From positions 1-22,080 of the forward strand of contig JBFGZE010000056.1 of assembly GCA_041586955.1 (NCBI GenBank): a DNA stretch of 22,080 nt, given 5' to 3'. The position numbers were made by a program, and so were the translations under genes. Under the pieces are notes generated by a model. That model searched no databases and had not been told where the DNA came from. It saw nothing but the letters and a program-made list of their open reading frames with translations. How positions within the stretch are numbered: position 1 is the first letter of the stretch; the number at the start of each line of letters is the position of its first letter. Shown here in pieces: positions 10,005-22,080 of the stretch. This DNA is from Bacteriovoracaceae bacterium. Its GTDB lineage: Bacteria > Bdellovibrionota > Bacteriovoracia > Bacteriovoracales > Bacteriovoracaceae.

Positions 10005-11054
10005 ATGTGGTATCCGCCTACCTTGATGACCGATAGATTGATATTAAGATCTCTTTCTAGAAAAGATGTAAAAGATATTTTTTCCTATGCTCATAAACCT
10101 ATTATAACCCAGTTCACTCTTTGGGCGCCTCACAAAACTCTAGCTGACTCAAAGAAATATATAGACCGATACGTGATGGATTATTATAGGGAAGGAGTTC
10201 CTGAGCCTTTTGGGATTATAGATAAAATGACAAATCAATTAATTGGCACGGTAGGCTGCTTCTGGGTGTCCAAACAAAATAAATCTATGGAATTAACCTA
10301 TGTTCTTTCTGATAAGCAATGGGGTAAAGGAATTATGGTAGAGGCCTCACTGGCAGTTATTGATTATTGCTTTAAATTATATGGCCTTCAGAGAATACAG
10401 TGCCAATGCAAAGCGGAAAATATAGCATCCTACCGAGTGATGGAAAAATTGGGAATGGTTTTTGAAGGCGTTTTGAATAATGAATTATTTCACCGGGATT
10501 GTTATTGGGATATGAGATCTTACTCTCTATTAAAGAAAGAATGGCTTTTAACTCACCGAAAAACGGGGCATGCCTTTATCAGAAAAGCTGAAAATGGTGA
10601 TGAGAAGGGAATTCATTACGCTCATATGAAATCAATTCAGGAGATTTGCGTCCAGGATTATACGCCCCAGCAGATTGCTGCGTGGGGGAAGGAAAAGTAT
10701 AACTTTAAAATGAGAAATAAAATGATTACCCAAGACCATGTTTGGGTCGTGGAATTGAATGGCGAAATCGAAGGTTATGGCCATTTATTCATTGTCGATA
10801 AGGAAAAACACGCTGAAGTGATGGGATTGTACTTAACCCCGAAAGTCATCGGATTAGGCCTAGGACAAGAGTTATTGTTTTATATAAAAGAGATGGCGAA
10901 AGTCTTGGGTGCCCATGAGCTTTATCTTTCCTCAACCAAAACATCAAAGCGTTTTTATGAGAAACATGGATTTATGCAATATGAGGATAATAAATGCTTT
11001 AGCATTGCTGGCGTAGAGTTTGAAGGCCATCCAATGCGTCATATCTTTTCCTGA
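10005..11054 (+). CDS. Tandem GNAT acetyltransferase (RimJ/RimL-type N-domain plus a second YafP-like GNAT domain)
   Basis: N-domain TDRLILR, QWGKGIMVEA, ENIASYRVMEKLGM. C-domain DYTPQQIAAW, LYLTPKVIGLGLGQELL, FYEKHGF. Start ATG 10005 or TTG 10002. Confidence 0.85.
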   Translation: MWYPPTLMTDRLILRSLSRKDVKDIFSYAHKPIITQFTLWAPHKTLADSKKYIDRYVMDYYREGVPEPFGIIDKMTNQLIGTVGCFWVSKQNKSMELTYVLSDKQWGKGIMVEASLAVIDYCFKLYGLQRIQCQCKAENIASYRVMEKLGMVFEGVLNNELFHRDCYWDMRSYSLLKKEWLLTHRKTGHAFIRKAENGDEKGIHYAHMKSIQEICVQDYTPQQIAAWGKEKYNFKMRNKMITQDHVWVVELNGEIEGYGHLFIVDKEKHAEVMGLYLTPKVIGLGLGQELLFYIKEMAKVLGAHELYLSSTKTSKRFYEKHGFMQYEDNKCFSIAGVEFEGHPMRHIFS

Positions 11055-11167
11055 TTTTTCTTAGGAGGAGAGGTTTATATGCTTTTGTTGCGGAGGGTGT
11101 TAGGATTTTGTTATAGTTTAAATTGCCTAATAATATCTTCATCTTAATGGAGAGAAAAGGAGAATCA

Positions 11168-11608
11168 ATGATAACAATAATTATTAATGGCCTCATTCTT
11201 TTATTGGTGGGATCTTGCGCTCAAATTAATCAAGAATCTAGGGAGCATCATTTTAAAGGTCGAGCTATGAGGCATGGGTTTATACCACTTGAAAAAAAGA
11301 CGGTAGAAGAAGAAGAATCTAAAAAAATTATTTCCTATAATGTTGAAGCAGCAGACAGAGGAAAAGTTGTTTACCGTAAAAATTGTATGGAATGTCATGG
11401 CCAGGAAGGTGAAGGGGATGGTCCTCGTGGTAAGAAGCTCTATATGAAACCGGCCAATTTAAAAAAAGCAGTCCACGCTGTTCCTGACTTTAGCTTCTAT
11501 ATGTCAATTTCGGAGTGGGAGGGGGAAATGCCAGGTTGGGAAAACGTTTTAACCGATAAAGAGATTAAAGATGTCAGTGAGTATATTAAATCCCTGGCCA
11601 CGAAATAG
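11168..11608 (+). CDS. Class I monoheme cytochrome c, probable lipoprotein
   Basis: Single CxxCH (CMECHGQEGEGDG), distal Met in GEMPGW, lipobox-like LVGSC. Start revised to ATG 11168 with AAAGGAG SD. Confidence 0.85.
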   Translation: MITIIINGLILLLVGSCAQINQESREHHFKGRAMRHGFIPLEKKTVEEEESKKIISYNVEAADRGKVVYRKNCMECHGQEGEGDGPRGKKLYMKPANLKKAVHAVPDFSFYMSISEWEGEMPGWENVLTDKEIKDVSEYIKSLATK

Positions 11609-11610
11609 CT

Positions 11611-12948
11611 CTAAATTGAATCAGCTTTCTTATTGAGGAGAATTTGCCTTATAATCAAAAAGAAAGAGAGAAAAAGGAAGGGAAAGCCGGGGATGATAGG
11701 TAGAAAGGCTCCGGTAATTCCAATGATTAAAAAAACAATTGCCAAGATGAGGTTTAATATCGTTCTCAGTTTAGAATTGACATTTTTTAGTTCGCTTTCC
11801 TGAAAAATAAACGCCATTGAAAAGTTAGAAATAAGTGCCAATACGATGTAAAAGAATAACATTTGTAATTTTTGAAAAAGAGAAAAATTTTCACTAAAAG
11901 ATTTAGTATCAATTCTTTCACAACCAACTTCGATTAATTTATCAATTTCTTGTTCTAAGTTCTTAGCAAAGGTCTCTGAGTAAATATTGACATTCATCTC
12001 TAAATTACCCTGATAACTGGTATAATTGAGGTTAAAAGATCCAATCGTCGACCATTTTCCATCAACTGTCGCCAATTTCCCATGGAGAATGGATTTTTCC
12101 CATTGGTAAATTTCGACTCCCTTGTCCAAAAATTGGTGAAAAAGGTATTGCGAAGCGAGGACCCAGCTTTTCCAATCAGAATGTTTCGGCAAAATAAGAC
12201 GTACTCTCACGCCTCTCTCGCTTGCCGCGACCAGCTTTTTTATGAATTTTTTTCGGGGAAAGAAATACGAATTGATAATGGTTATACTGCGCTGGGCCCC
12301 ATCGGTAATTTGACTGTACTCTCTGGTAATTTGCCTCCTATTATTGACCCAATCATTAACAGAAATTTTGGCATCCATTCCCATTGGGTGAGAAATAATA
12401 GGACAGGGAGCATTAAATGTTAATGGCTCGTAATAAGATTTTTGGAAAATATTTTGGCAATAAGCAGTAAGCCCTTTGGTAATAGGGCCCTCAATGCCAA
12501 CAGCAAAGTCCAAACGAGGGGACTTAAATAGTGTATCCACATAAGCTGAAATGATATTAATTCCGCCTATTATTGCTTTATTACCATCAACTAATAAAAT
12601 TTTATGGTGCAATCGACGACCCCAGCGGAAAAGAGTTTTAAGGCGAATACCATTAAAACGACAAAAATAGATCCCTGCTTCTTTTAATTGTTGCTCATTT
12701 TTAAAGGGGAAATCCTTAGATCCAAGACCATCAATAAGCAGGTAAATTTGAACTCCTCTTTTGCTGGCTAGAATTAATTCGTTATGAATCTTTTTACCAA
12801 ATGCATCCATACTGAAAATATAAACTTGAAGGTGGATACTTTTTTGGGCCGTTTGAATGAGTGTTAAAATCTCGATATCATAATCCTCCCCATCGTAAAA
12901 AAACTTTACGAGATTATGTTTCGTCTTTTTATAATATCTATTTTTCAT
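11611..12948 (-). CDS. clsB: ClsB-like cardiolipin synthase (phospholipase D family) with extra C-terminal membrane segment
   Basis: Two HKD motifs (LHHKILLVD, LHGKLATVD) and no N-terminal TM helices. Start revised to ATG 12948, overlapping the end of the upstream ybhP-like gene as in the ybhP-clsB operon. Confidence 0.8.
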   Translation of the reverse strand: MKNRYYKKTKHNLVKFFYDGEDYDIEILTLIQTAQKSIHLQVYIFSMDAFGKKIHNELILASKRGVQIYLLIDGLGSKDFPFKNEQQLKEAGIYFCRFNGIRLKTLFRWGRRLHHKILLVDGNKAIIGGINIISAYVDTLFKSPRLDFAVGIEGPITKGLTAYCQNIFQKSYYEPLTFNAPCPIISHPMGMDAKISVNDWVNNRRQITREYSQITDGAQRSITIINSYFFPRKKFIKKLVAASERGVRVRLILPKHSDWKSWVLASQYLFHQFLDKGVEIYQWEKSILHGKLATVDGKWSTIGSFNLNYTSYQGNLEMNVNIYSETFAKNLEQEIDKLIEVGCERIDTKSFSENFSLFQKLQMLFFYIVLALISNFSMAFIFQESELKNVNSKLRTILNLILAIVFLIIGITGAFLPIIPGFPFLFLSFFLIIRQILLNKKADSI

Positions 12949-13687
12949 AGATTTTAATCTCTGAGTATATCGCCAAATGATCGGATAAAGAGCGTTTACT
13001 AACATTTTCCATGGTATAGGCGTCTAAGGCCTTGGCGTTTTTGATATAAATTCGGTCGAGATATAAAAAGGGTAAGAATGCGGGAAATGTCTTTGCATAG
13101 TTTCCGTGGGTCACTTTGTGGACTTCCTCCATTCCCAATTCGTGTTCAAAAATTTCGGGGGAACGGTTATTCCAATCATTAAAATCACCCGCTAAGATAC
13201 ATGGGATATTCTTTCCTCGAATTCTATTATTGATTTCGTTTTTGATTTTTTCATATTGTTTGGCCCTTCCTCGGTGAAATAGATCAAGGTGGGCACACAT
13301 GGCATAGAGTTTTTTATTTCCGAAATCTGGCAAGCTTATTTTGCAGATGAGGAGTCCTCTTTGCTCTAGAATATTTGTTGATAAACCAATATTGGTATAT
13401 TCCTCAATCGGATATTTGCTTAAAATTAGATTCCCATGATGGCCATGATTATAAATGGCATTGCGAGCGTAGGAATAATAGGTCCAAAGATTATCGGCAA
13501 GAAACTCAAATTGCTGATCAATATGACCTTGCTCTTTGAGTTTATTATGTTCACCGATAACTTCTTGAATGAAAACGAGCTCCGCTCCTGAGACTTCAAT
13601 TAAGTGTTTAATCTCTTGCAGAATGAACTTTTGGTTACTCCAATTAAAACCTTTATGAATATTATAACTCAGAATTTTTAATTTCAT
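12938..13687 (-). CDS. Endonuclease/exonuclease/phosphatase family protein (YbhP-like)
   Basis: LSYNIHKG, FIQEV, HGNLILSKYPI, CAHLDL, AGDFNDW, LDRIY and LSDHL motifs. Directly upstream of the clsB-like gene. Confidence 0.9.
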   Translation of the reverse strand: MKLKILSYNIHKGFNWSNQKFILQEIKHLIEVSGAELVFIQEVIGEHNKLKEQGHIDQQFEFLADNLWTYYSYARNAIYNHGHHGNLILSKYPIEEYTNIGLSTNILEQRGLLICKISLPDFGNKKLYAMCAHLDLFHRGRAKQYEKIKNEINNRIRGKNIPCILAGDFNDWNNRSPEIFEHELGMEEVHKVTHGNYAKTFPAFLPFLYLDRIYIKNAKALDAYTMENVSKRSLSDHLAIYSEIKIYEK

Positions 13688-13693
13688 GTTGTG

Positions 13694-13699
13694 ATTATA
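13694..13699 (-). promoter_or_regulatory. -10 box (TATAAT) 6 nt before the ybhP-like ATG, suggesting a leaderless transcript
   Basis: Minus strand reads CTC-TATAAT-CACAAC-ATG with no SD sequence. Confidence 0.5.
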
Positions 13700-13772
13700 G
13701 AGCGAAAAAAATAAATTAAGTAACTTTATTTATTTTAATTACGATGCTTTTACTGGACTAAAATGATAGTAC

Positions 13773-14999
13773 TTAGGAGTCCTCACTTTTACGTAAAAAC
13801 CCCTGGTCGATAGCAAAACCTAGTCTCACCAGAATGGATAATATAAAAAGACCCATACCCCAAATGCCAATACTGATTCCTATTTCGATAAGTGTTGGAT
13901 GATATTCGACATATTCATGTAAGGGAGAAGGAATAAACCCAGGGATAATAAGGCCCATTCCTTTATCGATCCAAATCGCAATAAAGAGTAGAGCACACGC
14001 AGGATAAAGAATGTATGGATTTTTTCTAAAGCGATGAAAAGTGAGTGTAACAGTGACAAGAATATTGAGAATGATTGATGTCCAAATCCAAGGAACGAGA
14101 GCATTTAATTTACCGATTCCAAAAAATAGATACATAGCGCTGGCGCTATGTTCCGTTGGGTTGTAAAACTCTTTAAACAGTTCACTGCCGAGCATAATTA
14201 AATTAATTTGAGCGGCCGCTGTTATGATGATCGCCAACTTGTTGATAACCTCAGTGTCAACTTTAAATTGGCTAAATTTTTTAACGGCCCCTAAGAGTAC
14301 AAGAATGAAAGCGGGTCCACCGGCAAAGGCAGATGCTAGAAAACGAGGACCTAAAAGTGAATTATTCCAAAATGGTCTAGCGGGAAGGCCAGCATAGAGA
14401 AAGGCGGTTACTAAGTGAATTCCTAACGCCCAAAAGATACTTAGGAAGACAAAGGGGAGATAAAACTTTTTATTGGGGACACGCCCATGATAGCGCTGAA
14501 ATAAGATATACATGGGAATGAACATGTTGAGGAGCAGATATCCATTGAGTACGATTACATCCCATGCCAGCATTGATTCGGGCCAATTAAAATAACCGAT
14601 CTTGGGGATAAGATGCCAAAGTCTATGGGGCCCACCCATATCGACTGTCACAAAGGCCAGGCACATGAAAAGTGCGCCGACGGCAACACCTTCCCCGATC
14701 AGGACGACTTTATGAAAATCGACATCCGAAAAAATATAGGCCGGTAATACGAGCATGACGGCCGCGGCTGCCAGCCCAACTAGAAAAGTAAAATTAGATA
14801 TATAAAGACCCCAGCTAACATAATCATTCATACCTGTGACGATCAGGCCTTGGTCCAATTGAATGAGATATAGGCCTGCGCCCATTAACATTAGAAAAGT
14901 AAGAAAACCCATCCAAAGATGGTATATCCTCTCTCCGGTTAATGAATAGCGAAGGCAATCAAAGAAGAAATTGGTAAATTGTCTATAAAATATTCGCAT
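13773..14999 (-). CDS. NrfD/PsrC-family quinone-interacting membrane protein, DsrP-like (about 10 TM)
   Basis: 408 aa. VSWGLYISNFTFLVGLAA, FVTVDMG, WDVIVLNGYLLLN, IHLVTAFLYAGLPARPFW and PRFLASAFAGGPA closely resemble DsrP sequences as I recall them. Last gene of the nap operon. Confidence 0.88.
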   Translation of the reverse strand: MRIFYRQFTNFFFDCLRYSLTGERIYHLWMGFLTFLMLMGAGLYLIQLDQGLIVTGMNDYVSWGLYISNFTFLVGLAAAAVMLVLPAYIFSDVDFHKVVLIGEGVAVGALFMCLAFVTVDMGGPHRLWHLIPKIGYFNWPESMLAWDVIVLNGYLLLNMFIPMYILFQRYHGRVPNKKFYLPFVFLSIFWALGIHLVTAFLYAGLPARPFWNNSLLGPRFLASAFAGGPAFILVLLGAVKKFSQFKVDTEVINKLAIIITAAAQINLIMLGSELFKEFYNPTEHSASAMYLFFGIGKLNALVPWIWTSIILNILVTVTLTFHRFRKNPYILYPACALLFIAIWIDKGMGLIIPGFIPSPLHEYVEYHPTLIEIGISIGIWGMGLFILSILVRLGFAIDQGFLRKSEDS

Positions 15000-15002
15000 A
15001 AA

Positions 15003-16034
15003 TTAATCCATGTAATACCAGAATTTAGGTTCTGTTCCCAATTCCTCTTTGAGTCTAAATACTTTTTTATTTTCGATGATATAGCGAATGTCACTATTAG
15101 GATCGAGTATATTGCCGAAGACTCTCGCTCCAGTGGGACACGCGTCAACACAGGCCGGGTTTTCGCCCTTACGAGTTCTTTGGACACAGAAATGACATTT
15201 TTCCATTGAGCCTTTTGATTTTTTGCGATTGCCCAAATAATGCTGGTTAGGATTAATTTGCTCGGCCGGAACATGGGGCTCGCCCCAGTTGAAGCGGCGT
15301 GCCCAATAGGGGCAAGCTGCTTCACAATAACGGCAGCCAATACACCAATCATAATCAACGACAACAATTCCGTCCTGCTCTTTCCATGTTGCACCGGTTG
15401 GGCAAACTGGCACACAAGGCGGATTTTCACAATGCATACATTGAGTACCAATATAAAATTTATCATCTTGTGGTACTTCATGAAAATAAGCAGCATCGCC
15501 ATTCTCTAAATTGATTTTTCCATGATCCATTTCAAAAACTTTGATATATTGCATATTGGAATCACGGTCGAGGTTATTTTCTTCAACACAGGCCTTGATG
15601 CAATCCATATAGCCTTCACATTTAGAGATGTTAAACGCGTAACCGAAGAGAACTCCTGGAATTGGTTCGGCGCCTGAGACTTGAATATTTTCATTACGAT
15701 TGAGTTTGGCAAGCTCTTCTAGACGTTTTAGGGTCGCCAAGCGCTCCTTTTTATTCATCACGCGATAATTGCCTTTAAAGTATTCTTCCCATTTTAAGGA
15801 CGCAGATTGTCGCGTTTTTTCATCAAGTAGAGCAGTTGGACCTACCGCCATCAATGAGGCGCCCGCTCCCGCTGATGCAGCAGCTCCTCTAAGGAAATTT
15901 CGCCGCCCCATAGTGCGACCTAAAAGTTGCTTGGCCCCAGACTCCTCATGGGAGCAGCAGTTTGCCTGGTCTCGGCCATGGTCACACTTTTTGCCTTTTA
16001 AAAAACGATTTAAAAAATCTCTTATTTTTTTCAT
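15003..16034 (-). CDS. NrfC/DsrO-like periplasmic iron-sulfur protein with twin-arginine signal
   Basis: GRRNFLRG Tat motif. Cys groups CEGYMDCIKAC, CMHCENPPCVPVCP, CIGCRYCEAACP and CHFC..PACVDACP. Typical ending LKEELGTEPKFWY. Confidence 0.9.
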   Translation of the reverse strand: MKKIRDFLNRFLKGKKCDHGRDQANCCSHEESGAKQLLGRTMGRRNFLRGAAASAGAGASLMAVGPTALLDEKTRQSASLKWEEYFKGNYRVMNKKERLATLKRLEELAKLNRNENIQVSGAEPIPGVLFGYAFNISKCEGYMDCIKACVEENNLDRDSNMQYIKVFEMDHGKINLENGDAAYFHEVPQDDKFYIGTQCMHCENPPCVPVCPTGATWKEQDGIVVVDYDWCIGCRYCEAACPYWARRFNWGEPHVPAEQINPNQHYLGNRKKSKGSMEKCHFCVQRTRKGENPACVDACPTGARVFGNILDPNSDIRYIIENKKVFRLKEELGTEPKFWYYMD

Positions 16035-16049
16035 TACTACCTACTTTGG

Positions 16050-16652
16050 TTATTTAATCCAACGGGAACCGTTTGGATTAATACTAGGCCAACGGGGTTT
16101 AAAGCTGGGGTCATGGGGGTTATGGCAATCTGTACAATTATTCCGTACTATTTTTCCATGCCAACCACCAACTCGTTTGCCGTGAGCGCCCTTAGACCAG
16201 TCTTCAACTTGTTGAAAATGGCATTGTGTACAAACTTGGTAGGGGTGATTGATAGACACGGTGAAATGATTTAATGTTTTTAATTGCCAAACTCTTTTTG
16301 GGTCATGACAGGTTGTACAATTCATAACTTCCTGACTTGCATGCTGTAAAATAATCTCTGAATGTTGGGTGACGCCTACTTGGTTTATGATTTTTTTTGA
16401 TTCATGACAATCTTTACAAGTATTTTCTTTGAATTGACTAAAGCGCTTTTGCACAAAGAAGTCAGTCTTCGTTTTCCATTTGGCCTTTTCATATTGAATA
16501 TCTTGGAGAAGTTCAGGGGAAATTTGGTCACTTGCCATCGATGATGTACCAACTTTTGCCTTTTCGATTTTTTTATTTAAAACACCATGATGGCCAGGGT
16601 GGCATGCTGCCATTAATATCGATAGGAATAATAGGTGGATTGCTTTCATCAT
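16050..16652 (-). CDS. Tetraheme cytochrome c, probable lipoprotein
   Basis: Four CxxCH motifs (CKDCH, CTTCH, CTQCH, CTDCH) with extra His candidates for distal ligation. Lipobox-like LMAAC. ATGA overlap with the upstream napB-like gene. Confidence 0.88.
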   Translation of the reverse strand: MMKAIHLLFLSILMAACHPGHHGVLNKKIEKAKVGTSSMASDQISPELLQDIQYEKAKWKTKTDFFVQKRFSQFKENTCKDCHESKKIINQVGVTQHSEIILQHASQEVMNCTTCHDPKRVWQLKTLNHFTVSINHPYQVCTQCHFQQVEDWSKGAHGKRVGGWHGKIVRNNCTDCHNPHDPSFKPRWPSINPNGSRWIK

Positions 16653-17341
16653 AATTGACCTCTCTCCCAGGGGGTCTCTTCAAGAGCGGAAACGTGGCAT
16701 TGCAGGCAATTGACTCTCTCTGGATGAGTTACACGAATGGCCTTGATGCTTCCCTGTCCCGAATGGCAGGAAAGGCAAGTTTCGCGCATTTGCAGAGAAT
16801 GAGGGATGGTAGGGGGAGAACCTTTAAGATGAGATTTTCCAAGTTTTGCAGTTGTCGGTTTATGCCAATTGATATCCTTAAATAAAGAAGTCGTCCGCTG
16901 TGGAACGTGACATTGTTTGCAATTGGTGAATTCAGGATGAGGAGTAACTGGTGCATAGGCCTCAAATTCCGCTGCAAAACCACCATTGAGATGACAATGC
17001 AGGCAATTTTCAAAACTACCATTCATCGATGTTTTTATTTGATGGGGAATGGTTGGAGGAGCACCCAAATAGGCACGATTTTTATAAAAACTATCTAGGT
17101 CTCGTTTGCTATTGGGGTTATTTTTGGTTTCGGGATATTTATTCCCTTCTTTCAATCCATAATACATACCAGCTTGTGATTCTAAGGGCCTATCAATCCC
17201 TCTAAAATCTGTCAGTACCTCTTTTTTAAATGGGCCATGAGAATCAAAGTCAAAAACTTTAATCATAACCCAGATAAAGGAGACCATAAGCATTAGGGCA
17301 ATACCTAAAAAAATGGGGGATATTTTTGTTTTTTTGCTCAT
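16649..17341 (-). CDS. napB: NapB-like nitrate reductase cytochrome c subunit, internally duplicated (four hemes)
   Basis: Two NapB-type repeats PPTIPH..CLxCH..HPE..NCxQCHV (CLHCH, CKQCH, CLSCH, CLQCH). N-terminal hydrophobic anchor. ATGA overlap with the napA stop. Confidence 0.8.
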   Translation of the reverse strand: MSKKTKISPIFLGIALMLMVSFIWVMIKVFDFDSHGPFKKEVLTDFRGIDRPLESQAGMYYGLKEGNKYPETKNNPNSKRDLDSFYKNRAYLGAPPTIPHQIKTSMNGSFENCLHCHLNGGFAAEFEAYAPVTPHPEFTNCKQCHVPQRTTSLFKDINWHKPTTAKLGKSHLKGSPPTIPHSLQMRETCLSCHSGQGSIKAIRVTHPERVNCLQCHVSALEETPWERGQL

Positions 17342-19668
17342 ACCTTCTCAATCTTTATGGCGCATTTTTTATAATCGGGTTGCTTTGAAATCGGGCAATA
17401 GGCGTCGATTGTTAAATCATTAATAAGGTATTTTTCATCAAAAAATGGCACGAAGACATGACCTTCCTGTGGCCTACCACGGCCATTCACCTGGGCCTTC
17501 ATGATAATACTACCTCGGCGACTCGTTATTTTAATTTTGTCGCCAGTTCGTACCATCATTCTTTTGGCATCAGCAGGGTGAAGTTCAACATAGGACTCGG
17601 GAACAGCTTGGTGTAAAACTGGAATCCTTCTTGTCATTGATCCTGTATGCCAATGTTCGATTACTCGGCCAGTATTGAGAATAAAGGGATAGTCTTTGTC
17701 TGGTGGTTCTGGCATCTCCTCAAAGGGGCGTAAAAAGATCCACGCTTTATGGTCGGGTTTACCATAAAAATCGAAACCTTTGCCTTTGGCCGCAGGATCG
17801 TATTTAGCATGATAACGCCAACGAGTTTCTTGTCCGTCGACAAAAGGCCAACGAACTCCGGGTCTCTCTTTGAGAAGTTGGTAAGGTGCCATATTATGCT
17901 TTTTGCCTGCATGAAATAAACGGTATTCTTCCCATATCTTTTCGATATGATTTTTTTTATCCCATGGGAATAATTCCCCATGGCCCATACGTTTCGCCAC
18001 TTCAATCATAGTCCAAGCATCACTAATGGCATCACCTGGAGGTTCGACCAATTGATCAAAATGCTGAGTTCGCCGTTCTGAGTTGCCAAACATTCCCTCT
18101 CGTTCAATCCATAAGGCGGAGGGAAGAATGACATCGGCAATGTCAGTGGTAGGAGTGGGATAAATATCTGAGACCACAATAAAACGATCTTCTTTTTGGG
18201 CAGCTTCCCGGTAGCGGTTAAGATGGGGCATGGTGACCATGGGGTTAGTCACTTGAATCCACATGAATTTAATTTCACCGCGGTCAAGTGCCCGAAACAT
18301 CGATACTGTATGATGAGATGGTTTCGGTGAAATGTTTGATTCTGGTACTTTCCAAATTTTGGCGGCCATTTCGCGATCTTTCTTATTCGTTACGACACCA
18401 TGGGGGAGCTTATGGGTGAGCGTTCCGACTTCTCTTACTGTCCCGCAGGCACTTGGTTGGCCGGTTAAAGAAAACGGGCCATTTCCTGGAGTTGATATTT
18501 TACCGACAAGAAGGTGGATATTATAAACTAAATTATTGATCCATGTTCCACGAGTATGCTGGTTCATCCCCATGCACCAAAACGAGGTGACCTTTTTCTG
18601 TGGGTCACCATAGAGAGAGGCGAGGTAGCGAATGTCCTTTGCAGGGACGCCAGAGATATTTTCAACTTTCTCAGGAGTATAGTCCTTTAGAAAGTTTTTA
18701 TATTCATCTAAAGAAGAAGACTTGACTTCATCTTTGAAGTTAAATTTTTCTTCTAGGCCGTAACCTATATTGGTTTTACCAGTTTTAAAGGAACAATGGT
18801 TTTTAATAAACTCTGGATTTTCCCAACCATTTCGTAAAATTTCAAAACAAATGGCATTGGCGATCGCCAAGTCTGTTTGTGGTTTAAATAGAATGGACTT
18901 ATCGGCAGCATAACTTGTTCTTGTTGTTCTCGTTGCCAAGTCTATAATTTTAACTTTTTTATTCTTATATTTTCGATCGAGCATACGAGAGAAAAGTACT
19001 GGGTGCATCTCGGCCATATTATTACCCCATAGGACAAAGACATCGGCATAATCGATATCTTCATAGCAGCCCATGGGTTCGTCGAGGCCAAAGGTGGTCA
19101 TGAATCCCGTCACAGCGCTGGACATACAAAGTCTAGCATTGGCCTCTAGGTTGTTTGAGCCAATTGCGCCCTTCATAAATTTAGAGGCGACATAACCGTC
19201 TGGAATAGTCCATTGGCCACTACCGTAAATAGAAACAGCATCTTTACCATGTTTCGCAATTGTTTCTTTCATTTTTTTGGCAACAAGGTCCAGCGCTTCC
19301 CCTAAGGGGACTTCTACCATCTTACCATTCTTGCGCACCTGAGCTTTTTTGATCCGGTCTTTACCGTAGAGGACTTGGATCGAGTGATACCCTTTGACGC
19401 AGCAAAGTCCTTTATTGACAGGGGAGTCGGGATCACCCTTAACTGCTGTCGCCTTCCCATCTTTAATTCCAACAAGAAGGCCACATCCCACCCCACAAAA
19501 ACGGCACGGTGTCTTCTTCCATTGTAGATCTTGGTCATTTTTTAGTTTTTGTTCATCAGCGAATAAAACTCCTGGAACAAGTCCCTTGGCGACGAGGAGG
19601 GCCGAAGCGAATGCCATATTTTTAATGAAATCACGACGGTCAATTTGAGTTAAGTCTTCAGGCCTCAT
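17338..19668 (-). CDS. napA: Periplasmic nitrate reductase catalytic subunit NapA (Mo-bisPGD, [4Fe-4S])
   Basis: Tat signal DRRDFIK, Fe-S motif CRFCGVGC..CCVKG, Mo ligand NARLCMSSA, PFSLTGQPSACG, TGRVIEHWHTGSMTRR and C-terminal PISKQPDYKKCA. Start revised to ATG 19668 (776 aa), overlapping the napD stop (TAATG), with GGAG SD. Confidence 0.95.
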   Translation of the reverse strand: MRPEDLTQIDRRDFIKNMAFASALLVAKGLVPGVLFADEQKLKNDQDLQWKKTPCRFCGVGCGLLVGIKDGKATAVKGDPDSPVNKGLCCVKGYHSIQVLYGKDRIKKAQVRKNGKMVEVPLGEALDLVAKKMKETIAKHGKDAVSIYGSGQWTIPDGYVASKFMKGAIGSNNLEANARLCMSSAVTGFMTTFGLDEPMGCYEDIDYADVFVLWGNNMAEMHPVLFSRMLDRKYKNKKVKIIDLATRTTRTSYAADKSILFKPQTDLAIANAICFEILRNGWENPEFIKNHCSFKTGKTNIGYGLEEKFNFKDEVKSSSLDEYKNFLKDYTPEKVENISGVPAKDIRYLASLYGDPQKKVTSFWCMGMNQHTRGTWINNLVYNIHLLVGKISTPGNGPFSLTGQPSACGTVREVGTLTHKLPHGVVTNKKDREMAAKIWKVPESNISPKPSHHTVSMFRALDRGEIKFMWIQVTNPMVTMPHLNRYREAAQKEDRFIVVSDIYPTPTTDIADVILPSALWIEREGMFGNSERRTQHFDQLVEPPGDAISDAWTMIEVAKRMGHGELFPWDKKNHIEKIWEEYRLFHAGKKHNMAPYQLLKERPGVRWPFVDGQETRWRYHAKYDPAAKGKGFDFYGKPDHKAWIFLRPFEEMPEPPDKDYPFILNTGRVIEHWHTGSMTRRIPVLHQAVPESYVELHPADAKRMMVRTGDKIKITSRRGSIIMKAQVNGRGRPQEGHVFVPFFDEKYLINDLTIDAYCPISKQPDYKKCAIKIEKV

Positions 19669-19922
19669 TATTTTTCTCCTCCATGATTGGAGTTGTCGGT
19701 GCTTTCTGCATAAACCAGTGTTAGGCAACTAAGAGAAGTTACTTTCTTTAAACTTTCTTGGAGGTGCTCTTCTTCGCAATCACTACCAGTGTCAGTGATA
19801 AGTATAATCATGTCTTCGTTGAGGGCCGCTCTCGCATCACAGGACGAGAGTTGATTGAGATCGGCAACTAATTGTTCCTTGCCGTTCTCGTTTGGATAAG
19901 CGATATAACTCATGATGGGCAT
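19668..19922 (-). CDS. napD: NapD-like signal-peptide chaperone for NapA
   Basis: 84 aa, small and acidic, NapD-like pattern (MPIMSY.., MIILITDT, LTLVY). Translationally coupled upstream of napA. GGAGG SD. Confidence 0.75.
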   Translation of the reverse strand: MPIMSYIAYPNENGKEQLVADLNQLSSCDARAALNEDMIILITDTGSDCEEEHLQESLKKVTSLSCLTLVYAESTDNSNHGGEK

Positions 19923-19973
19923 TCTTTCCTCCAGAGGTTCTCTTGCTAGTCTGGGCCAGGAGATGATTCTTGG

Positions 19974-19990
19974 CCATGATGTGGGTCAGG
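19974..19990. promoter_or_regulatory. Putative FNR/CRP-family binding site (proximal) for the nap operon
   Basis: CCATGATGTGGGTCAGG contains ATGAT-N4-GTCAG, resembling TTGAT-N4-ATCAA, centred about 60 nt upstream of napD. Confidence 0.55.
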
Positions 19991-20118
19991 TATTTTTGTG
20001 CTATTTTGTGGCCGTATTTTTATCGCATCCCGGGGAAATGCCATGCAACCTCTTGAGTTTGCGTTGCGTGTGAGTTCCCGAGCCTTTTTCTTTGTTTAGT
20101 GGGCCTGTCTTTATGTTG

Positions 20119-20135
20119 CCTGACTCCCATCATGG
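20119..20135. promoter_or_regulatory. Putative FNR/CRP-family binding site (distal), inverted copy of the proximal site
   Basis: CCTGACTCCCATCATGG matches the reverse complement of 19974-19990 at 15/17 positions; both mismatches fall in the central 4-nt spacer. Confidence 0.5.
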
Positions 20136-20200
20136 TTATTTTTCTGATCTAGGTTGTGACGCAGTCCCTGGCCTCAAATGGGGCCACGCCACATGAGCTT

Positions 20201-20848: not shown

Positions 20849-21526
20849 TCAAGGAGACATGAGTAGGTCTTTTAAGGACCATTCGATTCCATATTTAAAG
20901 GGAGAAAAGAGAGGCCTTTTCAGTCCCGCCGCTTTAAGGCCATCAGCGGTCCATTGGTTACACGAGTAAAAGAGGTGGTAACTTCCTTTCGCTGCTAGAA
21001 AAAAATCACTGTCATAATAATTAAATGAAGAGTCGAGGAAGGGGAGTTTATCTTGGTTGAGTGAAAAGGAGTTTTTTATATAGGAGAGAAGTTGTTGATA
21101 GTTGTGGTGAGTTATTGATATTCGATACAGCTTCATATGAGAAGGCAATTCTGAAAGAAAGTTAATATGCATAACACTTGGAGTTTTCAAAAAGAGCGCC
21201 TTTAAAAGGACGCTTAGTTTTACTTTATCCCAAGTTTGGATATGATAAAAAAAACCTCTGTCCCCCCAACCAATGCTTATATATTTTGACTCGTTGATAA
21301 GATAAATTTTTTCTTTAGGAATAACTTTTTTCCAAGCAAAGAGATTATCTGTGAGGGGTAGAATAAATTCTGTATGAATTTGAGCAGAAGACAGATAAAT
21401 GACATCTTCCTCTTCTTGTCCTATGTTGCCTACTGTTAAAATAGAGCCGACCAGAGAAAGTGACCCATAAAAGAGGGTGAATAAAATAGGGAAACCGATA
21501 ATGAGAAAGTATAACCATTTTTTCAT
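20849..21526 (-). CDS. DUF2459 / TIGR02117-like conserved protein
   Basis: IHTEFILP, IGWGDRGFF, PSVMHI and GSYHLFYSCNQWT motifs. N-terminal TM segment. Confidence 0.8.
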   Translation of the reverse strand: MKKWLYFLIIGFPILFTLFYGSLSLVGSILTVGNIGQEEEDVIYLSSAQIHTEFILPLTDNLFAWKKVIPKEKIYLINESKYISIGWGDRGFFYHIQTWDKVKLSVLLKALFLKTPSVMHINFLSELPSHMKLYRISITHHNYQQLLSYIKNSFSLNQDKLPFLDSSFNYYDSDFFLAAKGSYHLFYSCNQWTADGLKAAGLKRPLFSPFKYGIEWSLKDLLMSP

Positions 21527-21578
21527 CCGATATCCTGTTTTTGCCGCGTTTTAATCAATCATAAATTTAAGTTTTGAT

Positions 21579-21827
21579 ATGAGTGCATTGATCCTATTGA
21601 GACATATCGTAAAGCAAGAAAAGTGTCCAGCCTACTCGGTATTGTGTGATAATTGTGGAAGGAAAAGGTTAATATATAATATGAGAATTATTTCCTCGAA
21701 AACTCATACTTTAGAAGCAAAATTACTAATGATAGACCATGTTTCAAACAAGGAGCTTTATTTTTATGAAGAAAGCGTCTTGGGGGATATTGTTGAAACG
21801 ATACAACTAAATGATATAAAATCATGA
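21579..21827 (+). CDS. Possible small hypothetical protein (true start may be ATG 21681)
   Basis: Only ORF in an otherwise empty AT-rich region, divergent from the DUF2459 gene. No recognisable motif. Confidence 0.25.
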   Translation: MSALILLRHIVKQEKCPAYSVLCDNCGRKRLIYNMRIISSKTHTLEAKLLMIDHVSNKELYFYEESVLGDIVETIQLNDIKS

Positions 21828-22080
21828 ATAAAAATGGTGTTGATTCAGTTGTCGGGGTTAGTTTCTTAATGAGTTTTTCAAAAATCGCCCACCACTAAGT
21901 TTAAGTTGTTAGATCCATGATTGATGCCAAAAATATTTGGCTTCTTCTTTTGATTATTTTTTTTTATAGGTACCTTAAATTATTTGAATTTGATTAACTC
22001 GGATCATTGCTTGTAGGTGAGATCTTATTATTAGTATAAGATTATGCTTAATTAAAGCGCTTGTTGTTGTACGTCTATAC

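Follow-up and report, generated by a model that had tools for sequence, protein, structure and literature searches.

Organization of the locus

The window analyzed here is a 22,080-nucleotide (nt) stretch of contig JBFGZE010000056.1 from the assembly GCA_041586955.1 of a Bacteriovoracaceae bacterium, a marine organism of the predatory type. Its minus strand carries, at 13773-19922, six co-oriented genes (from the listing of open reading frames, ORFs) for a periplasmic nitrate reductase (Nap) system in which napD and napA are followed by genes for two tetrahaem cytochromes, a DsrO-like iron-sulfur (Fe-S) protein, and a DsrP-like membrane protein of the NrfD family. Common schemes of Nap show NapC or NapGH as the sole quinol dehydrogenases and treat the system as non-energy-conserving; in the classical systems, NapAB is accompanied by NapC or NapGH, in operons such as napFDAGHBC, napEDABC, and napAGHBFLD. 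None of napC, napG, napH, or napF is found in the cluster described here. The operon is real, conserved, and widespread, and it consists of known families in an arrangement omitted from Nap schemes, of which the window copy is an ordinary member. In the order of transcription, its genes are as follows (lengths in amino acids, aa):

19668..19922, minus strand: napD, predicted NapA-specific chaperone of the twin-arginine translocation (Tat) pathway, 84 aa
17338..19668, minus strand: napA, catalytic subunit with Mo-bisPGD (molybdenum bis-pyranopterin guanine dinucleotide) and [4Fe-4S] cofactors, 776 aa from the ATG at 19668
16649..17341, minus strand: tetrahaem "double NapB" with an N-terminal hydrophobic anchor, 230 aa
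16050..16652, minus strand: tetrahaem lipoprotein cytochrome c, 200 aa
15003..16034, minus strand: Tat-exported DsrO/NrfC-like Fe-S protein, 343 aa
13773..14999, minus strand: DsrP/NrfD-like integral membrane, putatively quinol-interacting subunit with about 10 transmembrane helices, 408 aa

The tight coupling of these genes, claimed in an earlier note on this DNA, agrees at every junction with the sequence. At the napD/napA junction, read directly as TAATG, stop and start share one base. Overlaps of 4 nt (ATGA) join napA to the NapB-like gene (17338-17341) and the latter to the lipoprotein cytochrome gene (16649-16652), followed by gaps of 15 nt before the Fe-S gene and 3 nt before the membrane-protein gene. 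The ORF call for napA reaches 17338-19728, with a TTG at 19728, but the ATG at 19668 is preferred as the start because it is preceded by a GGAGG and because it places the twin arginine at residues 11/12, as in 75/75 full-length homologous rows.

Conservation and distribution

A species-level genome collection was searched with an alignment of 17 DsrP-like proteins, which matched at least 602 stretches, at least 590 of them encoding a relative. Conservation was counted over the best 80 of these at least 590 DsrP-like loci by tblastn with the six proteins of the window. The napA gene lies directly upstream of the module in the same orientation in 77/80 loci, and all six genes occur in the same order in 70/80, spread over six or more phylum-level labels, which is far more than chance. 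Contig ends truncate seven of the remaining 10 loci (L008, L012, L015, L018, L042, L054, and L075), and the other three (L014, L019, and L059) lack only a detectable napD. To judge by record titles, carriers include Halobacteriovorax, Bacteriovoracaceae, and Oligoflexales; many Flavobacteriaceae (Tenacibaculum, Aquimarina, Zobellia, Arenibacter, Flagellimonas, and others); Cytophagales, Chitinophagales, and Rhodothermaceae; and Gemmatimonadaceae, Longimicrobiales, Myxococcota, Planctomycetota, and Acidobacteria, the placement of the genus names in phyla being assumed here. The possibility that the NrfCD-like genes might not be syntenic with napA elsewhere was not borne out.

A forward test was made on 301 evenly drawn genomes of the Flavobacteriaceae, the family of locus L039. 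NapA was detected in 48/301 of them, 47 over the cut-off and 1 as a contig-end fragment, and the 47/47 genomes with a complete napA are the very ones that carry a DsrP-like gene, which in each case follows napA at 3-5 kb downstream on its contig and strand. Both samples answer the gene-neighborhood check proposed in the earlier note, and both support the view that the six genes behave as one conserved unit. A separate NapC/NirT-family gene is lacking in 26/47 of these Nap-positive Flavobacteriaceae, and NapH over its cut-off was found in 0/47. A phylum-scale sample of 201 genomes yielded NapA in the center genome only, so that Nap is rare at this scale and the sample was uninformative for linkage, and within the order of the window a Nap-type gene occurs in 4/121 genomes, including the window's own.

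NapD and NapA

NapA exceeds both applicable equivalog cut-offs, with 993.4 bits on NF010055 (cut-off 904) and 963.5 bits on TIGR01706 (cut-off 930.55), and its alignment with Escherichia coli NapA (2NYA, 810.4 bits) runs over the full length and matches the Mo-ligand cysteine. All 75 full-length rows of the NapA alignment keep the twin arginine (residues 11/12), the Fe-S cysteines 55/58/62, and the Mo-ligand Cys181, 2 further rows being cut by contig ends. MoaA is also encoded in the genome (298.5 bits).

The 84-aa product of the first gene has no Pfam or family match on its own. Its aligned positional orthologs match PF03927 (NapD) in 20/22 cases, and a profile built from the ortholog alignment finds both E. 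coli structures of NapD, 2PQ4 (E 1.7e-6) and 2JSX (E 2.1e-6), so that the assignment as napD is supported at the level of the protein family. The identities first proposed for both proteins are upheld, that of NapD by way of its ortholog profile.

The two tetrahaem cytochromes

Both cytochromes contain four CxxCH motifs. The NapB-like protein matches PF03892 (NapB, 48.3 bits), and its residues 86-152 align to Cupriavidus necator NapB (3ML1_B). It consists of two repeats, each with a PxIPH histidine and a CxxCH followed by another histidine and another CxxCH, a pattern kept in at least 93% of 78 rows; four CxxCH motifs are present in 76/77 loci and five in one. By these motifs, the protein is a tandem NapB with four putatively bis-His-ligated haems. 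An N-terminal hydrophobic 19-mer, present in 77/78 rows, indicates that it is probably membrane-anchored.

The lipoprotein cytochrome has four CxxCH motifs in every complete copy among related loci. Its lipobox Cys17 is conserved in at least 90% of 29 aligned rows, in which the four CxxCH motifs together with His97, His104, His157, and His180 are invariant. The duplicated repeats and the lipobox agree with the earlier description of the pair as a tetrahaem NapB-like protein and a tetrahaem lipoprotein. The NapC/NirT family (PF03264) gives only a marginal, partial match of 25.4 bits to the lipoprotein, and a sequence search of PDB returned nothing below E 0.04. Its AlphaFold2 model (mean predicted local distance difference test (pLDDT) 65.8, predicted template modeling score (pTM) 0.54) had 0 Foldseek matches in PDB at E <= 0.001, an uninformative result that was expected because the model is of an apo multihaem protein.

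The Fe-S protein and the membrane subunit

The Fe-S protein matches Fer4_11 (72 bits). Of the named models, DsrO (NF045797) scores best at 186.6 bits, below its cut-off of 200, followed by QrcC (147.8, cut-off 400) and NrfC (125.4, cut-off 377.6); its nearest solved relative is the Fe-S domain of ActB from alternative complex III (ACIII). A twin arginine (R44 R45) is invariant, as are 15 cysteines arranged 3+4+4+4. The first cysteine motif is without its second cysteine and has an invariant Tyr142 in that place, a pattern taken here to be a [3Fe-4S] signature by the rules for ferredoxins, and for this reason the outermost cluster is probably a [3Fe-4S] cluster.

The stretch of the Fe-S protein ahead of its twin arginine (residues 1-43; 15906-16034, minus strand) is long and contains three cysteines in the window copy. 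At least three cysteines occur there in 65/78 orthologs, typically as CxC with a third cysteine 4-6 residues on, and the stretch is without cysteine in seven orthologs, including the two closest relatives (L003 and L004). Such a conserved cysteine-rich region ahead of a Tat motif is unusual; it may serve in metal binding or proofreading in the cytoplasm, or act as an anchor that is not cleaved.

The membrane protein matches PF03916 (NrfD, 111.3 bits) and passes the DsrP model NF045798 (411.3 bits, cut-off 350), scores 43 on the QrcD model against a cut-off of 570, and has 10 hydrophobic segments in a Kyte-Doolittle scan. Together with the twin arginine of its neighbor, these matches fit the Tat-exported NrfC/DsrO-like protein and the NrfD-family protein of about 10 helices that had been proposed. 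Its nearest solved relative is ActC of ACIII (6F0K_C, E 1.9e-14 with the family profile). Residues D120, S142, and K346, invariant in 17 rows, align to His139, Ser164, and Arg395 of ActC. In a review of the NrfD family, these ActC positions are given roles in the protonation of quinol, in the quinone pocket, and as a gate in mid-membrane, respectively, and Asp106, Ser124, and Lys329 are listed for Desulfovibrio DsrP1 (PMC8076601). The alignment supports the view that the DsrP-like protein keeps the residues assigned to quinol handling. In the longer gaps between the dsrO- and dsrP-like genes, no small conserved ORF was found in 15 related loci.

Public records of three relatives of the membrane protein (P0078, P0090, and P0117, from Reichenbachiella, Rhodothermales, and Acanthopleuribacter) bear the name [quoted passage not shown]. 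This naming of the Nap-linked protein in non-sulfate-reducers is probably a systematic misannotation; the Nap-linked protein passes the NCBI DsrP equivalog model.

Predicted docking of the lipoprotein cytochrome

Residues 70-343 of the Fe-S protein and residues 18-200 of the lipoprotein cytochrome were modeled as a complex in three runs, alongside 3 controls. The interaction prediction score from aligned errors (ipSAE), a measure of model confidence, was 0.85, 0.86, and 0.85 for the pair, and the best control reached 0.00; at least 88% of contacts are shared between the runs, with a partner pLDDT of at least 77. The score mark used is met by 116/157 solved complexes and 2/215 mismatched pairs, counts that are rough here, as own alignments were used. 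The predicted interface comprises residues 138-150 (the first cysteine group) and 287-323 (the last group) on the Fe-S side and residues 147-196, around haems 3 and 4, on the cytochrome side. The cluster at this interface is presumably the one farthest from the membrane, following the topology of four-cluster proteins, and the same position is the docking site of the catalytic subunit in polysulfide and dimethyl sulfoxide (DMSO) reductases. The prediction supports docking of the lipoprotein cytochrome on the Fe-S protein. Of the multimer of five structural subunits suggested in the earlier note, one pair is covered by this result, and for that pair an interface is predicted.

The cytochrome/Fe-S/NrfD trio outside nap operons

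Paralogous DsrP-like genes, with 487-533 bits on the profile built in this analysis, occur in three genomes of the window's own family, and the trio of tetrahaem cytochrome, Fe-S protein, and NrfD-type protein is found in other settings, listed by locus:

L093 7001-11558, L094 7001-11517, and L095 6984-11268, minus strand: clusters linked to hydroxylamine oxidoreductase (HAO), octahaem cytochrome plus trio
L092 7062-12902, plus strand: two tandem cytochrome/Fe-S/NrfD trios without NapA, in the Flavobacteriaceae genome G434

In the HAO-linked clusters, an octahaem cytochrome (476-492 aa, PF13447, HAO family) is followed by a 150-aa protein of no family, a tetrahaem cytochrome (162-167 aa), a DsrO-like protein (181.6 bits), and a DsrP-like protein (400.7 bits). 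Such a cluster may encode a reductase of nitrite or hydroxylamine that draws on quinol; none was found in the assembly to which the window belongs. The tandem trios of G434 are split by a monohaem cytochrome c, and this genome also has a nap operon. The lipoprotein cytochrome of the window is 34% (E 7e-23) and 39% (E 4e-25) identical to tetrahaem cytochromes of NapA-free modules. Because relatives join the same trio to an HAO-family octahaem, comparison of these gene clusters identifies the trio as a portable module for putative quinol oxidation.

In a tree of 47 rows, the Nap-linked DsrP-like proteins form one clade (support 100/99), separate from an HAO-linked clade (100/100), a stand-alone group, and a Candidatus Electrothrix protein. 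The tree was midpoint-rooted for drawing, includes several long branches and no verified canonical DsrP, and is used for the monophyly of the Nap clade only. The names of 20 DsrP-like representatives are mostly uninformative labels of metagenome-assembled genomes (MAGs), the Electrothrix cluster alone being identifiable. Among the representatives at 50% identity, P0123, P0125, P0128, and P0129 are much longer (563, 566, 859, and 616 aa) and may be fusions with the Fe-S subunit, as in Lacipirellula (see below).

Classical donors and nitrite reductases in the genome

The host assembly comprises 3.46 Mb in 194 contigs and is 88.45% complete. Within it, the NapC/NirT family (PF03264) has 0 matches, and the best matches to NapH, NapG, and NapF are 61.6 bits (cut-off 213.05), 19.4 bits (cut-off 178.85), and 26.9 bits (cut-off 102.2), respectively; PF03264 is also lacking in 4/5 other genomes with the operon. 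The claim that the cluster has no napC, napG, napH, or napF therefore extends, at cut-off, to the assembly as sequenced, and this absence together with the conserved six-gene unit supports a distinct Nap architecture without NapC or NapGH. There is no match to dsrA in the genome and no dsrM, dsrK, or dsrJ in the cluster. Apart from that of the operon, the only NrfD-family gene in the genome is part of an ordinary ACIII locus on contig C3, with ActB-, ActD-, and ActE-type neighbors.

Proposed electron pathway and alternatives

The reading favored here, with a probability of about 0.78, is that the operon encodes a functional, non-classical Nap in the form of a membrane-bound quinol:nitrate oxidoreductase complex. 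NapD would mature NapA in the cytoplasm, after which the Tat system would export NapA. Quinol, probably menaquinol, would be oxidized at a periplasm-facing site of the 10-helix DsrP/NrfD-like subunit, and its electrons would cross the four clusters of the Tat-exported DsrO-like protein to the lipid-anchored tetrahaem cytochrome docked on the outermost cluster. From there they would pass through the membrane-anchored tandem NapB to the [4Fe-4S] and Mo centers of NapA, where nitrate would be reduced to nitrite. The trio of tetrahaem, Fe-S, and NrfD-type proteins would stand in for NapC or NapGH, and because all parts are membrane-tethered, they probably form one complex. The chain outlined in the earlier note gains support over its first part, where the quinol residues are kept and the cytochrome/Fe-S docking is predicted; for the part that runs from the lipoprotein cytochrome through the double NapB to NapA, the order of the two cytochromes is an inferred one.

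Several points weigh against this reading. Given the completeness of the assembly and its 194 contigs, NapC and NapGH are not found rather than proven absent, and a weak NapH-superfamily membrane ferredoxin (61.6 bits) is encoded elsewhere in the genome, on contig C15. A gene of the NapC/NirT/NrfH type is present somewhere in 21/47 Nap-positive Flavobacteriaceae and lies right after the DsrP-like gene in G228 (C6:191304-191768) and G411 (C1:1141366-1141581), where it may begin a nitrite reductase unit. The interface score expresses model confidence, not binding, and a likeness to solved ACIII Fe-S/cytochrome pairs could lift such a pair past the mark; the prediction covered the Fe-S/lipoprotein cytochrome pair. 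A sigma-70 consensus scan found no site upstream of napD (12 promoter-like sites overall against a shuffle mean of 16.3), and a terminator scan found none after the last operon gene (8 terminator-like sites against 7.2 in shuffles). The complete ACIII locus on C3 could feed periplasmic cytochromes. In addition, NrfA (PF02335), NirK, and NirS were not found in the 88.45%-complete genome, so that the physiological role of the system may be respiration, redox balancing, or nitrite supply.

The presence of ACIII bears on an alternative in which NapA and the NapB-like protein are fed by ACIII or a bc-type complex through a soluble or tethered cytochrome c, while the trio is an independent quinol:cytochrome c module that travels with nap and serves other acceptors in the periplasm. 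Consistent with it, the trio is found without NapA, both HAO-octahaem-linked and stand-alone, and besides ACIII the genome encodes a monohaem cytochrome c of the cbb3 type, at a distance of 2 kb (11123-11608); Nap of Campylobacter is also reported to use Qcr (PMC6195509). This account is nevertheless improbable in view of the co-linear order in 47/47 Flavobacteriaceae and 70/80 cross-phylum loci, with genes that overlap or nearly touch, and of the separate clade formed by the Nap-linked DsrP-like proteins, as expected of a dedicated partner.

The lack of a detected nitrite reductase in the 88.45%-complete genome would also fit a NapA-like enzyme that acts on another substrate (chlorate, selenate, or another oxyanion) or a system that runs toward quinone reduction. 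This possibility is very improbable, since NapA passes the equivalog cut-offs and aligns with E. coli NapA at the Mo-ligand cysteine and the surrounding motif, as in 75/75 orthologs. Moreover, Tenacibaculum maritimum, whose locus may be of the present type, reduces nitrate, an activity that its genome paper assigns to NapAB (PMC5561996).

A quinol:nitrate oxidoreductase of the proposed kind could differ in whether it conserves energy. With the same wiring, the trio could be a NapC-like, non-energy-conserving quinol dehydrogenase, in which protons and electrons both leave on the periplasmic side with no extra charge transfer. This has close to an even chance of being correct: the residues of the quinol pocket correspond to the site on the periplasmic side of ActC, the sequence itself gives no demonstration of pumping, and neither E. 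coli NrfCD nor classical Nap is held to be proton-motive on its own. Against it stand the roughly 0.5 V that, by standard potentials, separate menaquinol from nitrate and leave room for coupling, and the replacement of the one-helix NapC by a 10-helix subunit throughout these lineages, which would otherwise be unexplained. The mid-membrane Lys346 and other charged or polar helix residues are moreover invariant across phyla, and such positions are tied to ion pathways in the NrfD-family review (PMC8076601). That the NrfD-type subunit adds proton translocation is given about one chance in three, D120, S142, and K346 being no more than candidate residues. The broader proposal, that the trio is a general proton-motive quinol dehydrogenase cassette for various periplasmic reductases such as NapA and the HAO-family octahaem, is slightly less likely still and must be regarded as doubtful.

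Comparison with known systems

Compared with classical Nap, the favored quinol:nitrate oxidoreductase shares the NapD chaperone, a Tat-exported NapA with a [4Fe-4S] cluster and a Mo-ligand cysteine, a NapB-type bis-His haem partner, and the periplasmic conversion of nitrate to nitrite. It differs in being without NapC, NapG, NapH, and NapF, in a NapB that is tandem-duplicated, tetrahaem, and N-terminally anchored, and in three further products of the same operon: a lipoprotein with four haems, an Fe-S protein with four clusters, and a membrane protein of the NrfD family.

Among respiratory complexes with NrfD-type subunits, DsrMKJOP resembles the system in that the DsrP-like protein exceeds the DsrP cut-off and DsrO is the best-scoring named model for the Fe-S protein (186.6 vs 200, below the cut-off), and DsrP1 likewise has 10 helices and a lysine at the gate position. 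Unlike DsrMKJOP, the cluster has no dsrM, dsrK, or dsrJ, the genome has no dsrA, and the partner is NapA with nitrate as a high-potential acceptor. ACIII (ActABCDEF; 6F0K, 6BTM) follows the same sequence from quinol through an NrfD-type subunit, Fe-S protein, and multihaem cytochrome c to a periplasmic acceptor, but no ActB molybdopterin-like domain, ActF (the second NrfD subunit), ActD, or ActE is encoded in the cluster. E. coli NrfABCD and the Wolinella MccACD-type systems, in which a terminal multihaem reductase sits on a module of the NrfC/NrfD type, are similar in that quinol supplies a periplasmic reductase of nitrogen or sulfur oxyanions by way of a cytochrome and of Fe-S and membrane proteins of the NrfC and NrfD types, and their closest parallel is the HAO-octahaem version in the window's relatives. 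Unlike NrfABCD, the operon has an Fe-S protein far below the NrfC cut-off (125.4 vs 377.6), also scores far under the cut-off of the NrfD model, lacks NrfA, and ends in a molybdoenzyme. Qrc is likewise distinct by its models (QrcD 43 vs 570, QrcC 147.8 vs 400).

A 2026 paper describes a dsrOhPh-tetrahaem locus in cable bacteria, some Desulfobulbales, and Gamma-/Betaproteobacteria, whose function its authors call unknown while suggesting electron transfer from quinol to the periplasm (PMC13047784). That locus shares with the present operon a tetrahaem cytochrome, a DsrO homolog, and a DsrP homolog detached from dsrMKJ; as described there, it differs in lacking NapA and in having a small gene, TMH1, whereas the window cluster has no small membrane-protein gene. 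Over its residues 11-392, the DsrP-like protein of the window shares 36% identity with P0161 (421 aa) of Candidatus Electrothrix, which scores 236 bits on the DsrP model vs 411 for the window protein and falls outside the Nap-linked clade. To judge by its organism and length, P0161 probably corresponds to the DsrPh of PMC13047784. The dsrOhPh-tetrahaem locus is not linked to Nap in the 2026 paper, nor in a 2024 paper.

No full description of the six-gene Nap operon was found by full-text literature searches, although the main Nap reviews and Duarte et al. 2021 may bear on its novelty. The doubt expressed in the earlier note as to whether the architecture had already been described is thus eased but not removed, and two passing mentions came to light. 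For Lacipirellula parvula PX69, one paper reports an operon that combines NapA with an Fe-S subunit, the latter being fused to a membrane subunit resembling NrfD (PMC6995999), and another reports, for the tunnel MAGs OFTM8 and OFTM33, a multihaem/4Fe-4S/NrfD/ActD cluster downstream of Nap genes (PMC10732223). Neither mention covers the unit of six genes, the NapB duplication, the tetrahaem lipoprotein, a distribution, or a mechanism, and the planctomycete form of Lacipirellula is a fusion, unlike the separate genes of the window. The words Nap and nitrate reductase are absent from the NrfD-family review (PMC8076601), and the T. maritimum genome paper names only NapAB for the nitrate reduction of that strain (PMC5561996).

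Papers on several further organisms proved irrelevant to the layout: Deferrivibrio, in which napG/H is present; Caldithrix, which has NapGH plus Rieske/cytochrome b; Ca. Sulfobium, with NapGH; and Thermosulfurimonas, with napMADGH. A paper on Acididesulfobacillus was likewise irrelevant.

Flanking regions

The neighbors of the operon are unrelated by Pfam, with a phage-tail-collar-domain protein and a DUF2459 protein upstream and an endonuclease/exonuclease/phosphatase-family protein and a PLD-like protein downstream. One further feature precedes napD:

19923..20200, minus strand: upstream intergenic region, presumed promoter region (278-nt gap before napD; boundary from gene spacing only)

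The cbb3-type monohaem cytochrome c gene mentioned above (PF13442; 11123-11608, plus strand) is on the opposite strand, some 2 kb away from the operon, and a link to Nap is not evident. The G+C content is 0.41-0.46 across the operon (14001-20000), 0.35-0.37 at 11001-14000, and 0.32 at 21001-22000. Given this contrast and the occurrence of a Nap-type gene in 4/121 genomes of the order, acquisition of the operon by transfer is possible.

Biological significance

The cytochrome/Fe-S/NrfD trio would represent a third dedicated donor module for Nap. Operons with this module are the only Nap type in the sampled Flavobacteriaceae (47/47), and at least 590 species genomes encode a closely related DsrP-like protein. 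Textbook schemes and gene-based surveys of the nitrogen cycle would therefore miss the path that electrons actually take in abundant groups of sea and soil, and automatic annotation probably misnames the membrane subunit as a protein of sulfate reduction. For the orphan DsrOP-like/tetrahaem loci of cable bacteria, the operon offers a testable function, and cultivable carriers exist among strains of Zobellia, Tenacibaculum, Aquimarina, Flagellimonas, and Arenibacter. If it is true that the NrfD-type subunit couples the menaquinol-to-nitrate span to protons, growth yields on nitrate would differ from those assumed. If the cassette is general and proton-motive, the DsrOP homologs reported in 2026 would likewise acquire a function, Nap would be energy-conserving in Flavobacteriaceae, Gemmatimonadota, Myxococcota, Acidobacteriota, and the predatory Bacteriovoracaceae, and in these groups it could no longer be seen as dissipative or scavenging.

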